The notes under the pieces were generated by a model. The model had not been told where the DNA came from and searched no databases. It worked only from the letters and a program-made list of their open reading frames with translations. From NCBI RefSeq assembly GCF_045037415.1, contig NZ_CP173438.1: a stretch of 64,000 nucleotides of DNA; one strand, written 5' to 3'. Source of the stretch: Escherichia coli (lineage in GTDB: Bacteria > Pseudomonadota > Gammaproteobacteria > Enterobacterales > Enterobacteriaceae). Made by a program: the position numbers and the translations under genes. Positions 13,012 to 18,912 of the stretch are shown here, piece after piece (within the stretch, counting starts at the first letter, position 1; every line of letters begins with the position of its first letter).

Positions 13012-14811
13012 ATGACGACACAGGTCCCACCTTCCGCGTTGCTTCCGTTGAACCCGGAGCAACTGGCACGCCTTCAGGCGGCCACGACCGATTTAACTCC
13101 TACCCAGCTTGCCTGGGTTTCTGGCTATTTCTGGGGCGTGCTCAACCAGCAGCCTGCTGCGCTTGCAGCGACGCCAGCGCCCGCCGCAGAAATGCCGGGT
13201 ATAACTATTATCTCCGCCTCGCAAACTGGCAATGCGCGTCGGGTTGCTGAAGCATTACGCGATGATTTATTAGCGGCAAAACTGAACGTTAAGCTGGTGA
13301 ACGCGGGCGACTATAAATTCAAACAAATCGCCAGCGAAAAACTGCTTATCGTGGTGACGTCAACGCAAGGGGAAGGGGAACCGCCGGAAGAAGCCGTCGC
13401 GCTGCATAAGTTCCTGTTCTCCAAAAAAGCGCCAAAGCTGGAAAACACCGCGTTTGCCGTGTTTAGCCTCGGCGATAGCTCTTATGAATTTTTCTGCCAG
13501 TCCGGGAAAGATTTTGACAGTAAGCTGGCGGAACTGGGCGGTGAACGCCTGCTCGACCGTGTCGATGCCGACGTTGAATACCAGGCTGCTGCCAGCGAGT
13601 GGCGCGCCCGCGTGGTTGATGCGCTTAAATCGCGTGCGCCTGTCGCGGCACCTTCGCAATCCGTCGCTACTGGCACGGTAAATGAAATCCACACCAGCCC
13701 GTATAGCAAAGACGCGCCGCTGGTGGCGAGCCTCTCTGTTAACCAGAAAATTACCGGGCGTAACTCTGAAAAAGACGTTCGTCACATTGAAATTGACTTA
13801 GGTGACTCTGACCTGCGTTACCAGCCGGGTGACGCGCTGGGCGTCTGGTATCAAAACGATCCGGCACTGGTGAAAGAACTTGTCGAACTGCTGTGGCTGA
13901 AAGGCGATGAACCTGTCACCGTCGAGGGCAAAACGTTGCCTCTGAACGAAGCGCTACAGTGGCACTTCGAACTGACCGTCAACACCGCCAACATTGTTGA
14001 GAACTATGCCACGCTTACCCGCAGCGAAACGCTGCTGCCGCTGGTGGGCGATAAAGCGAAGTTACAGCATTACGCCGCGACGACGCCGATTGTCGACATG
14101 GTGCGTTTCTCTCCGGCGCAACTGGATGCCGAAGCGCTGATTAATCTGCTGCGCCCACTGACCCCGCGCCTGTATTCCATCGCCTCCTCGCAGGCGGAAG
14201 TCGAGAACGAAGTGCACGTTACCGTTGGTGTGGTGCGTTACGACGTGGAAGGCCGCGCCCGTGCCGGTGGTGCCTCCAGCTTCCTCGCGGATCGTGTGGA
14301 AGAAGAGGGTGAAGTCCGCGTATTTATCGAACATAACGACAACTTCCGCCTGCCAACCAATCCGGAAACCCCGGTGATCATGATTGGCCCTGGCACCGGC
14401 ATCGCGCCGTTCCGTGCCTTTATGCAGCAGCGTGCCGCCGACGAAGCGCCGGGTAAAAACTGGCTATTCTTTGGCAACCCACACTTTACGGAAGATTTCC
14501 TCTACCAGGTGGAATGGCAGCGTTACGTCAAAGAAGGCGTGCTGACGCGCATCGATCTCGCCTGGTCGCGCGATCAAAAAGAAAAAATTTACGTACAAGA
14601 CAAACTGCGCGAACAGGGCGCAGAGCTGTGGCGCTGGATCAATGACGGTGCCCACATTTATGTCTGCGGCGACGCTAATCGCATGGCGAAAGACGTTGAG
14701 CAGGCACTTCTGGAAGTGATTGCCGAATTTGGTGGCATGGACACCGAAGCGGCGGATGAATTTTTAAGTGAGCTGCGCGTAGAGCGCCGTTATCAGCGAG
14801 ATGTCTACTAA
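13012..14811 (+). CDS. cysJ: sulfite reductase [NADPH] flavoprotein alpha subunit
   Basis: 599-aa ORF; flavodoxin plus FAD/NADPH-binding domains; gene order cysJ-cysI-cysH. Confidence 0.95.
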
Positions 14812-16523
14812 TGAGCGAAAAACATCCAGGGCCTTTAGTGGTCGAAGGAAAACTGACAGACGCCGAGCGCATGAAGCTTGAAAGCAACTACCTGCGCGGC
14901 ACCATTGCGGAAGATTTAAACGACGGTCTGACCGGCGGCTTTAAGGGCGATAACTTCCTGCTGATCCGCTTCCACGGCATGTATCAGCAGGATGACCGCG
15001 ACATTCGCGCCGAACGTGCTGAACAGAAGCTGGAGCCGCGCCACGCGATGCTGCTTCGCTGTCGTCTGCCGGGTGGGGTGATTACCACTAAACAGTGGCA
15101 GGCGATCGACAAATTTGCCGGTGAAAACACCATCTATGGCAGCATTCGCCTGACCAACCGCCAGACGTTTCAGTTCCACGGCATTCTGAAAAAGAACGTC
15201 AAACCGGTGCACCAGATGCTGCACTCGGTCGGTCTTGATGCGCTGGCGACCGCCAACGACATGAACCGTAACGTACTCTGCACCTCGAACCCTTACGAGT
15301 CGCAGCTGCATGCGGAAGCATATGAATGGGCGAAGAAAATTTCTGAACATCTGCTGCCTCGTACCCGCGCGTATGCGGAGATCTGGCTCGATCAGGAAAA
15401 AGTCGCCACTACTGATGAAGAGCCGATCCTTGGTCAGACCTACCTGCCGCGTAAGTTCAAAACCACGGTAGTGATCCCGCCGCAGAACGATATCGATCTG
15501 CACGCCAACGACATGAACTTCGTGGCGATCGCCGAAAACGGCAAGCTGGTGGGCTTTAACCTGCTGGTGGGCGGTGGGCTTTCCATCGAACACGGCAACA
15601 AGAAAACCTACGCCCGCACGGCGAGTGAGTTTGGCTATCTGCCGCTGGAGCATACGCTGGCGGTGGCGGAAGCCGTCGTGACAACTCAGCGTGACTGGGG
15701 TAACCGAACCGATCGTAAAAATGCCAAAACCAAATACACGCTGGAGCGCGTAGGGGTTGAGACGTTTAAAGCGGAAGTTGAACGTCGCGCGGGGATCAAA
15801 TTCGAGCCGATTCGCCCGTATGAGTTTACCGGACGCGGCGATCGTATTGGCTGGGTTAAGGGCATTGATGATAACTGGCACCTGACGCTGTTTATCGAAA
15901 ATGGTCGAATTCTTGATTATCCGGGGCGCCCGCTGAAAACCGGCTTGCTGGAGATCGCGAAGATCCACAAAGGTGATTTCCGCATTACGGCGAACCAGAA
16001 TCTGATCATCGCCGGCGTGCCGGAAAGCGAGAAAGCGAAGATCGAGAAGATCGCCAAAGAAAGCGGGTTAATGAATGCCGTCACGCCGCAGCGTGAAAAC
16101 TCAATGGCCTGCGTGTCATTCCCGACTTGCCCGCTGGCGATGGCGGAAGCGGAGCGTTTCCTGCCGTCTTTTATCGACAACATCGATAATTTAATGGCGA
16201 AACATGGTGTCAGCGATGAGCATATCGTGATGCGTGTAACAGGCTGCCCGAACGGTTGTGGTCGCGCGATGCTGGCGGAAGTGGGTCTGGTGGGGAAAGC
16301 GCCGGGTCGCTACAACCTGCATCTTGGCGGCAACCGCATTGGGACACGTATCCCACGGATGTATAAAGAAAACATCACCGAGCCGGAAATCCTGGCGTCG
16401 CTTGATGAACTGATAGGGCGCTGGGCGAAAGAGCGCGAAGCGGGTGAAGGCTTCGGCGACTTTACGGTGCGTGCGGGCATCATTCGCCCGGTGCTCGATC
16501 CGGCGCGCGATTTGTGGGATTAA
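14811..16523 (+). CDS. cysI: sulfite reductase [NADPH] hemoprotein beta subunit
   Basis: 570-aa ORF; CPNGC siroheme/Fe-S cysteine cluster; start overlaps the cysJ stop. Confidence 0.95.
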
Positions 16524-16526
16524 CCA

Positions 16527-16585
16527 TCAGCCCGGTCTTGTAGGCCTGATAAGACGTGTGAGCGTTGCATCAGGCAAGGCAAACA
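16527..16585. repeat. REP element between cysI and cysH
   Basis: TAGGCCTGATAAGACG...GCATCAGGC palindromic unit. Confidence 0.7.
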
Positions 16586-16596
16586 GTGAGGAACTT

Positions 16597-17331
16597 ATGT
16601 CCAAACTCGATCTAAACGCCCTGAACGAACTGCCAAAGGTAGACCGGATTCTGGCGCTGGCGGAAACTAACGCCCAACTGGAAAAACTGGACGCTGAAGG
16701 CCGCGTAGCCTGGGCGCTGGATAATCTGCCCGGTGAATATGTACTTTCTTCCAGCTTTGGCATTCAGGCGGCGGTGAGCCTGCATCTGGTGAATCAGATT
16801 CGCCCGGATATTCCAGTGATCCTCACCGATACCGGCTATCTGTTCCCGGAAACCTACCGCTTTATTGACGAGTTAACGGACAAACTCAAGCTCAACCTGA
16901 AAGTGTATCGTGCTACCGAAAGCGCCGCCTGGCAGGAAGCACGCTACGGCAAACTGTGGGAGCAGGGCGTTGAAGGCATTGAAAAGTACAATGACATCAA
17001 CAAAGTCGAACCGATGAACCGGGCGCTGAAAGAACTGAATGCGCAAACCTGGTTTGCTGGCCTGCGCCGTGAACAATCCGGCAGCCGCGCCAATTTACCG
17101 GTGCTGGCAATTCAGCGTGGCGTATTTAAAGTGCTGCCGATTATCGACTGGGATAACCGAACTATTTATCAGTACCTGCAAAAACATGGCCTGAAATATC
17201 ACCCATTATGGGATGAAGGATATTTATCGGTGGGCGATACCCATACAACCCGTAAATGGGAACCCGGCATGGCGGAAGAAGAAACGCGTTTCTTTGGCTT
17301 AAAAAGGGAATGTGGATTACACGAAGGGTAA
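16597..17331 (+). CDS. cysH: phosphoadenosine phosphosulfate (PAPS) reductase
   Basis: 244 aa from the ATG at 16597 ([14 protein letters not shown]...); C-terminal ECGLH motif. Confidence 0.95.
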
Positions 17332-17348
17332 ATATTGCCGGATAAATT

Positions 17349-17389
17349 AAACGCCTCTGTCAGAAATGATGGAGGCGTTTTTATTTTTT
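17349..17389 (+). terminator. intrinsic terminator downstream of cysH
   Basis: Stem AAACGCCTC / GAGGCGTTT followed by a T-rich run TTTATTTTTTG. Confidence 0.6.
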
Positions 17390-17399
17390 GCGAGCAGCA

Positions 17400-17800
17400 T
17401 TCCGGCATTTAAAGGTGAACATCGCAGGGAAAATTAACAGGTATAGAATGGCATTGGGTGCTTGAGGCTGTCTGGCGTTAAGCATTCGCAAGGTTCCAGA
17501 TGGACAAAAGCCCCAGGCGATATTTCTATCAACCTGAGGCTCGCGTTCGAACGTAGCAATTCGGATGTTAGTCTCTTCTTTGCAGGGAGGCAAGACATGC
17601 TGACAAAATATGCCCTTGTGGCAATCATCGTACTGTGTTGTACAGTACTGGGATTCACGTTGATGGTAGGCGACTCGTTGTGTGAGTTGAGTATCAGAGA
17701 ACGTGGTATGGAGTTTAAGGCAGTTCTCGCTTACGAATCGAAGAAGTAGCCACCACGCGGGGTAAAACCCCGCGTACTGAATTGTGATGGTTTGGCCTCC
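17400..17800 (+). other. hok/sok-type type I toxin-antitoxin locus (antisense Sok RNA expected on the minus strand over the hok leader; not mapped)
   Basis: Contains a Hok-family ORF with an in-frame upstream mok-like extension and a 3' GC hairpin (CGCGGGG-TAAAA-CCCCGCG, 17756-17774). Confidence 0.55.
17597..17749 (+). CDS. hokX: Hok/Gef-family membrane toxin (50 aa)
   Basis: [50 protein letters not shown]: one transmembrane helix plus conserved SLCE...AYES Hok signature; symbol assigned because the hok homologue next to cysH is, as I recall, the hokX/sokX locus. Confidence 0.65.
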
Positions 17801-17874
17801 TGCACCCCTTTTTTATACTCTGTTTCTGGTGGCATTGATTTCCTGCAGGCAAGGGAGTAATCATTTCAAACCCA

Positions 17875-18912
17875 TTAAGATGCCTTCGCCAGCTCCTTCA
17901 CCAACGGTAGCATTATCCGCATAACATCACGGCAGCGACGTTCTATTCTTCCAGGAAGTGCCTTATCAATATGCTGTTGATTATCCAGTCTTACGTCATG
18001 CCAGCTATTTCCCGCAGGGAATGCGGCTGTTTTTGCTCGTTGCTGATAACCATCCTTATTGCCAAGATTCCAGTTAGTCGCTTCCACCGAAAGTACAGCA
18101 ATACCGGCTTTGTCGAATATTTCTGCGTCATTACAACACCCGGTGCCTTTCGGATAGTTTTTATTCAAACCTGGATTTGTGGTGGCGGCAATTCCATGGC
18201 TGCGGGCAATTGCCAGCGCCCGGTCGCGCGTTAATTTCCTTACTGCTTCAGGGGTTTTTACACCGCTGTTGAAATACAATTTATCGCCAACAATTAAGTT
18301 ATCGAGATTAATCACCAGCAGCGTATTTTTCTTTTCGGTGTCACTCATCCGCTTGAGTAAATTCTCAGCGCCTAATTTTCCTTCCTCTTCGCCGCTGGTC
18401 GCCACAAATCGAATACCATACTCGGTAGGCGTATTTTTCAGGCGCTCGGCCAGTTCCAGCATGACACCTAAACCTGCGGCGTTATCATCCATTCCTTGTA
18501 ACGTCAGCCCGCCGAGATTGGCATCGGCGTCAGCATCGCTCAGCGGGGCGTAAGTATCCAGATGCGCCATAATGATGATCTGCTGCGGCGTTTTGCCTTC
18601 ATGAGCGGCAATCACCGTACTTCCCGTCACGTTATGCCAGCTCTTGCGATTATCGCGGGCGGTATAAATATACCGACTATTAAATGTCCGAATATCACTG
18701 CGATAACCCATTTGCTGAAACTGTTGGCGAATATAATCGGCAGATAACATTTCTGCAGGAGTTCCGGTCATGCGTCCCGGAAAGAAAGTAGCAATATGTC
18801 GTGCCTGGGTATTAGCAAAATCGCCAGGTTTAGGTGACGAGGCGTGTACGGGGAGAATAAAGCATACGCCGAGCGCCAGGGCAGCGGTACGGTGGCGCAA
18901 TGCGGAAAACAT
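17875..18912 (-). CDS. iap: alkaline phosphatase isozyme conversion aminopeptidase (M28 family)
   Basis: 345-aa ORF with signal peptide; position between cysH and cysD. Confidence 0.9.
   Translation of the reverse strand: MFSALRHRTAALALGVCFILPVHASSPKPGDFANTQARHIATFFPGRMTGTPAEMLSADYIRQQFQQMGYRSDIRTFNSRYIYTARDNRKSWHNVTGSTVIAAHEGKTPQQIIIMAHLDTYAPLSDADADANLGGLTLQGMDDNAAGLGVMLELAERLKNTPTEYGIRFVATSGEEEGKLGAENLLKRMSDTEKKNTLLVINLDNLIVGDKLYFNSGVKTPEAVRKLTRDRALAIARSHGIAATTNPGLNKNYPKGTGCCNDAEIFDKAGIAVLSVEATNWNLGNKDGYQQRAKTAAFPAGNSWHDVRLDNQQHIDKALPGRIERRCRDVMRIMLPLVKELAKAS

Follow-up and report, generated by a model that had tools for sequence, protein, structure and literature searches.

Does the short open reading frame (ORF) between cysH and iap in a 64,000-nucleotide (nt) stretch of Escherichia coli DNA (assembly GCF_045037415.1, contig NZ_CP173438.1; this whole stretch is hereafter called the window, and positions are counted from its first letter) encode an intact toxin of the Hok family and, if so, how is that toxin kept in check and how is it translated? 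A first-pass annotation made from the letters alone had proposed an apparently intact Hok-family gene at 17597-17749 on the plus strand. Our analysis indicates that the locus is very probably the intact form of hokX/sokX, a type I toxin-antitoxin module of E. coli, with hokE/sokE as its closest paralogue and a build like that of the R1 hok/sok system. The locus is already known: it has been annotated and named, its intact form in B2 and uropathogenic E. coli (UPEC) has been described, and both its mRNA and the adenosine-to-inosine (A-to-I) editing of that mRNA have been published. Given the RefSeq annotation of the gene and the descriptions of the locus in the literature, the finding itself is an ordinary one.

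The coding sequence (CDS) runs from an ATG at 17597 to a TAG ending at 17749 and specifies 50 amino acids. The product matches the Pfam family HOK_GEF (PF01848) along the full profile (positions 1-42 of 42) with a score of 39.1 bits (cut-off 22; E value 5.7e-10), and the NCBIfam HokA and Hok-family models match it weakly, under their curated cut-offs. RefSeq names the identical protein, which is found in strains SK1144, T2 and CFT073 (locus tag C_RS15775 in CFT073), a 'Hok/Gef family protein' (WP_000956458.1). Alignment with chromosomal Hok proteins, a comparison that the first-pass annotation had recommended, gave identities of 78% to K-12 HokE, 48% to HokA and 38% to HokC, with C14, L28, C29 and E30 invariant among the four. 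The peptide has the Hok architecture: its hydrophobic helix, at the N terminus, carries Cys14, the L-C-E motif (Cys29) falls in the periplasmic part that follows, and position 46 is an editable Tyr. The Pfam match, the RefSeq protein and the family alignment together bear out the original claim of an intact Hok-family gene at these coordinates.

We collected 56 related loci from Escherichia, Pseudocitrobacter, Kluyvera, Klebsiella, Citrobacter, Enterobacter, Kosakonia, Trabulsiella and Yokenella, among others, and aligned 50 distinct full-length loci with the window to give a set of 51, to which the counts of loci below refer. The ORF is conserved in all 51, spread over many Enterobacteriaceae, which is far beyond chance. 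The median ratio of nonsynonymous to synonymous substitution rates (dN/dS) in 49 comparisons against the window was approximately 0.14; as judged from these sequence comparisons, the Hok peptide is under purifying selection.

The position of the gene identifies it further. The order in the window is cysI (14811-16523), cysH (ending at 17331), a gap of 265 nt, the 50-amino acid ORF, iap on the minus strand (17875-18912) and cysD (from 19164), a chromosomal setting that can be summarized as cysJIH, hok, iap, cysDNC. Because the ORF lies directly 3' of cysH and is collinear with both K-12 sokX and E. coli B hokX, it belongs to the hokX/sokX orthologous group. Over the 551 nt surrounding the ORF the identity to E. 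coli chromosomes, for example that of SK1144, is 100%, and the cysH-adjacent part is matched by 5,425 of 5,426 complete E. coli genomes. An intact hok gene ('hok-5') has been reported between cysH and iap in NRG857c, a B2 strain of adherent-invasive E. coli (AIEC), as the homologue of E. coli B hokX, which is inactivated by an insertion element (PMC7232551), and hok and sokX were both found adjoining cysH in 90% of 237 uropathogenic isolates (PMC12736100).

How often the locus is intact was determined by using the CDS and the 3' untranslated region (17597-17815) to query the 5,426 complete genomes. The CDS was found in 4,220 of them and was contiguous through the 3' element in 3,417 (63%). The intact form is therefore the majority state and not the exception, and the earlier suggestion that an intact copy is something unusual was overstated. 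Approximately 800 genomes showed partial coverage, most of those sampled breaking at position 17770, and approximately 1,200 were K-12-like. K-12 keeps the leader and sokX; its homology ends immediately past the hok ATG (…gacatg / tgtatatcac…), where the sequence passes into the region upstream of cas3. In BL21(DE3) the hok CDS is present and IS421, of the IS186 family, lies directly after the 3' hairpin, in agreement with the published E. coli B hokX (PMC7232551). This GGGG-N5-CCCC hairpin (17755-17775) is a recurrent insertion site for IS186/IS421 (break at 17770/17771); such an element follows it in many further genomes of the partial-coverage group, and K-12 IS186B sits 19 nt past the hokE stop, in the equivalent hairpin. 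Insertions in the hairpin separate the fold-back inhibitory element (fbi), described below, from the mRNA. No plasmid matches occurred in the E. coli genome set, and a search of a plasmid collection at >60% identity returned a handful of records, mostly chromosome-sized or hokE-bearing (the hokE copies at 76-80%).

The features that would make such a gene part of a regulated module lie on either side of the CDS. A -10 box, TAGAAT (17444-17449), places the probable start of the hok mRNA at G17456, 6 nt downstream. A TAnnAT hexamer stands 6 nt from an invariant GGGUGC[U/C]UGA in all 29 loci whose upstream flank was inspected; in these same loci the -35 region and the sequence upstream of the -10 box vary with the genomic context. 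The Rfam model RF01794 matches the plus strand at 17456-17612 (104.3 bits; gathering score 59; model positions 1-157 of 157), so that the match begins at the very base taken as the mRNA 5' end. The full-length transcript is predicted to be about 355-360 nt long (17456-17814), with its 5' end placed by family conservation and a putative 3' end at a run of six T residues (17809-17814) that follows fbi; the homology with strain T2 ends near 17815. A consensus promoter and terminator scan flagged neither the hok nor the Sok promoter, because the former has no good -35 box and the latter agrees with the consensus at 8 of 12 positions; the scan did flag 17600-17628, inside the CDS, and 17792-17819, over fbi.

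A palindrome resembling a LexA box (e.g. CTGTATAAATAAACAG) was seen 25-45 nt upstream of the mRNA start in the hokE-type loci L027, L028, L040 and L045 and in L025, L032, L041, L050 and L055; none is present in the hokX promoter region of the window. These boxes suggest, from their sequence, SOS control of some paralogues and not of the hokX studied here.

The mRNA begins with the tac element, GGGUGCUUGAGGCU (17456-17469), which is invariant or nearly so across the 51 loci. Its partner is fbi in the full-length fold and either a local sequence or the upstream complementary box (ucb) in shorter transcripts. The minimum-free-energy fold of 17456-17810 has a predicted energy of -132.6 kcal/mol (z -4.2). 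In it GGGUGC at 17456-17461 (mRNA positions 1-6) pairs with GCACCC at 17802-17807 (347-352), and GAGGCU at 17464-17469 (9-14) pairs with GGCCUC at 17794-17799 (339-344). Across the loci the first of these helices is paired in 100% and the second in 81% of cases, showing that the long-range closure of the message is conserved. This conserved pairing of the 5' end assigns the fold-back role to 17794-17807 (GGCCUC-CU-GCACCC). The first-pass annotation had tentatively given that role to the hairpin CGCGGGG-TAAAA-CCCCGCG at 17756-17774; the hairpin exists, but it is self-contained, and it corresponds instead to the terminal stem-loop of processed R1 hok mRNA, which protects that RNA from 3' exonucleases (PMC9841398). 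The enclosing stem-loop (17755-17775), probably the terminal hairpin of the processed hokX mRNA, is paired in 90% of alignment cells across the loci and shows C-G to U-A swaps in 15 of them.

The remaining pairings fall into two alternative states. The ucb, an anti-Shine-Dalgarno box with the sequence AAGCCCCAGG (17508-17517), has two predicted partners: CCUGAGGCU when the fold is closed (96% of alignment cells paired) and tac when it is open (95%). A mok-type Shine-Dalgarno (SD) sequence, GAGG, is found at 17536-17539, the position of the R1 mok SD (PMC9841398). When the message was cut back in silico to the 3' hairpin (ends at 17776-17790), the fold switched to an SD/dcb pairing, of GAGGCU with AGUCUC at 17570-17575, the downstream complementary box (dcb), and tac paired locally; the dcb pairing carries an A-U to G-C compensatory change in 7 loci. 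The fold of the truncated message also shows a leader hairpin at 17543-17568, the likely target of Sok, with a 5' arm and loop complementary to the single-stranded 5' tail of the antisense RNA; counted together with the SD/dcb helix, 6 of its 15 pairs have undergone compensatory change. A nascent transcript of 65 nt folds into the tac/ucb stem. Closed-state pairings were retained at 92.5% across the loci, as compared with 36-48% in controls in which the partner was slid, and open-state pairings at 92.3%, as compared with 33-53%, with 17 pairs having changes on both sides. As modeled, the folds are those of the R1 system: a closed state, an open state and a metastable 5' hairpin (PMC9841398).

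The hok ribosome-binding site (RBS) is likewise predicted to be sequestered. Its SD, GGGAGG (17585-17590), lies 6 nt upstream of the ATG, and its complement forms part of the Sok -35 region. The segment around it, GGAGGCAA, hardly varies across the loci: GGCAA is constant, and the two preceding bases differ in no more than 10% of them. This SD region is predicted to pair with 17727-17734 near the 3' end of the CDS, where 93% of alignment cells are paired, as compared with 35-60% when the partner is slid. On the CDS side the pairing involves GUUCUCGCUUACGAA, the almost invariant sequence around Tyr46, which also contains the UACG motif recognized by TadA. A covariation test of this pairing is uninformative either way, because its columns hardly vary even though the pairing is conserved.

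An antisense RNA of the minus strand somewhere around 17480-17600 had been anticipated in the first-pass annotation, and K-12 sokX maps inside that range. The K-12 annotation (b4701) describes a 59-nt antisense RNA (NC_000913.3, 2887353-2887411). Its homologue in the window comprises 58 nt (17557→17500); the predicted fold (-23.7 kcal/mol, z -4.05) is a hairpin flanked by a single-stranded 5' tail and a UUUU tail. The promoter can be read directly from the minus strand (17565-17593) and is identical upstream of sokX in K-12: a -35 sequence TTGCCT (17593→17588), a 17-nt spacer and a -10 sequence TAACAT (17570→17565). Across the family the -10 sequence is only ever TAACAT, TACCAT or TACTAT. A cis-antisense Sok complementary to the hok leader and equipped with its own promoter is thus encoded here, and it is predicted to be expressed in the strain from which the window comes. 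Reads within the sokX boundaries have been noted in Ribo-seq libraries of MG1655 (PMC7580957). RF01794, described in Rfam as 'sok antitoxin (CssrC)', was considered as evidence for the antisense RNA and rejected: the match is on the plus strand, and the consensus of the model is the hok leader with its tac/ucb stem. Labels derived from this model, such as sok_15/sokX in PMC5331693, mark the toxin leader and not the antitoxin.

Taken together, these elements would allow the following scheme. The weak promoter with its -10 box at 17444-17449 would give rise to a stable mRNA of about 355 nt in which tac (17456-17469) pairs with fbi (17794-17807), closing the leader. In the closed leader the GAGG (17536-17539) would be masked by ucb and the hok RBS by the CDS 3' end. 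Slow trimming of the 3' end back to the stem-loop at 17755-17775 would remove fbi and let the leader refold into the tac/ucb and SD/dcb pairings. The short, unstable SokX (minus strand, 17557→17500; promoter 17593→17565) would then pair with 17500-17557 of the refolded mRNA, blocking expression and triggering decay, and if Sok were lost the 50-amino acid membrane peptide Hok would be made. By analogy with HokB, in which a disulfide formed through Cys29 and Cys46 is needed for toxicity, editing by TadA of Tyr46 to Cys would probably make the peptide more toxic.

The editing step in this scheme has direct support. The Tyr46 codon, UAC (17732-17734), lies within UACG, and A17733 is the site of A-to-I editing by TadA that converts the codon to Cys. 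In two UPEC isolates with an identical 21-nt context, the gene for WP_000956458.1 (C_RS15775 in CFT073) was found to be transcribed, with editing (c.137A>G, p.Y46C) at 14.8% and 23.6% (PMC13017025 supplement). We also considered the edited 'unnamed gene C_RS16930' of the same study as a counterpart of the window gene; this was rejected, the window gene being C_RS15775. Codon 46 is UAC in 49 of the 51 loci, and the other two (L037 and L055) have a hard-coded Cys codon, UGC. In HokC, HokD and HokE, Cys46 has likewise been found to be supplied by RNA editing (PMC12214031). That HokX is itself a toxin is plausible on indirect grounds, namely the low dN/dS and the toxicity seen for 42 of 45 Hok homologues in another study (bioRxiv 10.1101/2025.08.07.668861).

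The part of the scheme that is most conjectural is how translation of hok begins, as there is no canonical mok start codon. R1 has its mok AUG 7 nt after GAGG. In the window the GAGG is present and covered by Sok, and the corresponding start position (17547-17549) holds UCG. Near-cognate starts 4-11 nt past GAGG were also considered and none is usable; the sole ACG (17551) is immediately followed by UAG. A canonical AUG at the equivalent of the UCG was found in only 8 of the 51 loci (Klebsiella, Kluyvera and Enterobacter), and the K-12 annotation, in which mokC is an in-frame extension of hokC, gives no mok for hokE. On these alignments the hokE/hokX subfamily generally lacks a canonical mok start.

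The first-pass annotation had suggested a start for Mok elsewhere, reading it as a 95-amino acid product that extends the hok frame upstream to a TTG at 17462, alongside the assignment of the fold-back element to the 17756-17774 hairpin. The frame is indeed open from 17462, and MokC of K-12 really is an in-frame N-terminal extension of HokC. However, the TTG occupies mRNA positions +7 to +9, inside the invariant tac stem, where there is no room for an upstream RBS, and the frame is not conserved: it is open to the 5' end in 13 loci and closed by TGA in 38, a 1-nt indel near 17555 placing an in-frame TGA at mRNA +80 in most E. coli lineages. The open frame thus stands, its role as mok does not, and the 5' end pairs with 17794-17807 and not with the hairpin; that the module is built in this way is highly improbable.

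The absence of a mok start also raises the question of whether the locus might be a relic, transcribed but translationally crippled, in which the change of the mok AUG to UCG prevents any meaningful synthesis of Hok and no toxin-antitoxin activity exists in E. coli; such a relic would persist through its linkage to cysH or through some other use of the leader and Sok RNAs or of the terminator region. Several observations weigh in this direction and against a working module. No ATG, GTG or TTG occurs 4-11 nt past GAGG in the window, the canonical AUG being confined to the few loci mentioned, and in R1 mutations of the mok start codon abolish toxicity (PMC9841398). K-12 retains sokX and the leader in the absence of any hok, and the locus is dispensable, because it is truncated, lost or disrupted by insertion sequences in approximately 37% of complete genomes, which have lost the CDS or had fbi split from it. 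The chromosomal hokA, hokB and hokC loci gave no post-segregational killing in earlier tests (bioRxiv 10.1101/2025.08.07.668861), and the literature searched contained no experiment on the toxicity of HokX, nor any on SokX, including its expression, in a strain with an intact hok gene. A relic would nevertheless be hard to reconcile with the purifying selection on the peptide, which holds across genera also where the canonical AUG is lacking, or with the maintenance of all of the regulatory pairings, compensatory changes included. The editing site that supplies Cys46 is moreover both conserved and used, and the great majority of Hok homologues assayed elsewhere are toxic, as noted above. We therefore regard the relic explanation as unlikely and retain the reading of the locus as an intact hokX/sokX module.

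Within that reading, one further possibility is that a short leader ORF takes the place of mok. The candidate comprises 12 codons (AUG UUA GUC ... UGC UGA; 17565-17603) and ends 4 nt past the hok AUG, its UGA (17601-17603) overlapping that codon in the sequence AUGCUGA. The toxin-antitoxin mechanism would be the same, except that ribosomes translating this ORF would open the structure over the hok RBS and re-initiate at 17597. AUG 17565 is the only conserved upstream AUG. An ORF that starts there and reaches the hok start is present in 44 of the 51 loci, either as a UGA-terminated frame or, where the distance from SD to AUG is 6 or 9 nt (the hokE type), in frame with hok to give a product of 61-62 amino acids, and an overlapping stop and start is the classical arrangement for translational coupling. 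Ribo-seq coverage of the sok_15/sokX leader has also been reported in enterohemorrhagic E. coli (EHEC), with a ribosomal coverage value of 0.63 and low counts (PMC5331693), but contamination has been put forward as the source of Ribo-seq signal on structured RNAs of this kind (PMC7580957).

The conservation of this ORF is confounded, since AUG 17565 is the complement of the Sok -10 box. Klebsiella-type loci keep the Sok -10 (as TACTAT) yet lose the AUG, so that conservation of the AUG needs no coding explanation. The AUG has no SD at a usable distance, the GAGG being 25 nt upstream, and it lies outside the region covered by Sok; a recent survey likewise refrained from calling Mok ORFs for such reasons (bioRxiv 10.1101/2025.08.07.668861). 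Furthermore, a run of 11-12 open codons is expected by chance approximately 60% of the time. A selection test on the ORF has no statistical power, because there are few independent spacer classes and because the Sok promoter and the hok SD constrain the sequence. We consider a leader ORF acting as mok at this locus possible but rather unlikely, and the extension of the idea to the subfamily as a whole, in which hok translation would be coupled to the ORF at 17565-17603 from an AUG inside the Sok -10 and outside the stretch covered by Sok, is doubtful. If it were true, this would represent a variation on the textbook hok/mok/sok coupling, and SokX would need a route other than masking the mok RBS, for example decay triggered by the duplex alone.

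As a discovery, then, the locus matters little. Its practical yield is a complete set of coordinates for the RNA elements that regulate hokX/sokX, together with the correction that the Rfam 'sok' model marks the hok leader on the sense strand. The broader point is that hokX, like hokE, is without a canonical mok start, which raises the question of whether translation of these conserved chromosomal toxins takes place and, if so, how.

The surroundings of the locus offer some further observations. Upstream, cysH is followed by a strong intrinsic terminator (17349-17390) with a stem of 14 pairs and a T-run, 18 nt past the cysH stop; it was the sole terminator called by the consensus scan (at 17349-17380), and it accounts for a weak Spot 42-like Rfam match at 17289-17384. 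Downstream, only about 60 nt (17815-17875) separate the 3' end of hok from the iap stop. No type I-E CRISPR-Cas system lies between hok and iap, and I-E repeats were absent across the 64 kb when up to 3 mismatches were allowed. The cas3 gene abuts the hok ATG in K-12 and follows fbi directly, on the opposite strand, in strain T2; the cas-less junction of the window recurs with the same sequence in E. whittamii and in further Escherichia loci (L005, L010 and L014). The cysI-cysH intergenic region contains a weak palindrome of the naRNA4/REP type on the minus strand (16544-16576; 21.9 bits, far under the gathering score). At the edge of the window, positions 1-1371 beside ygcE carry genes for a carbohydrate porin and an aminoimidazole riboside kinase, according to the annotation of the matching SK1144 region, and this sugar-utilisation set has been reported to fill the CRISPR region between ygcE and queE in about half of UPEC strains (PMC12736100).

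Among known systems, the closest is hokX/sokX of E. coli itself, as represented by K-12 (b4701), E. coli B, NRG857c ('hok-5') and CFT073: the locus is the same, it occupies the same site 3' of cysH, and the K-12 leader and sokX align with it base for base. Relative to K-12 and E. coli B, the window has neither the K-12 loss after the hok ATG nor an IS186/IS421 after the 3' hairpin, and it has no CRISPR-Cas between hok and iap. The hokC (gef)/mokC/sokC system shares membership in the Hok family, but the proteins are only 38% identical; MokC is a 19-codon in-frame N-terminal extension, and the 5' end of SokC overlaps its ATG. At the corresponding site in the window, approximately 57 nt upstream of hok, there is CTC (17540) in place of a start codon.

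The resemblance to R1 hok/mok/sok is one of build. The tac/fbi closure, the sequestration of the SD by ucb, the refolding into tac/ucb and SD/dcb pairings upon 3' truncation and the protective terminal stem-loop are shared, as is a cis-antisense Sok whose promoter lies in the dcb and hok-SD region (PMC9841398); one difference is the start codon for mok 7 nt past GAGG, which the window lacks. Hok homologues on genuine plasmids are less than 60% identical to the window peptide, and post-segregational killing of plasmid-free cells does not apply to this locus, because it belongs to the chromosomal core genome. The closest paralogue is K-12 hokE/sokE, which differs in its genomic site (ybdK-entD) and, as a type, in having the LexA-box-like CTGTATAAATAAACAG upstream of the promoter and an SD-to-AUG spacer that is 4 nt longer and brings the conserved upstream AUG into frame with hok. 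The layout of tac, ucb, SD, dcb, 3' hairpin and fbi is the same (L027, L028 and L040), the canonical mok AUG is missing from both, and Tyr46 stands in the same UACG editing context (PMC12214031).

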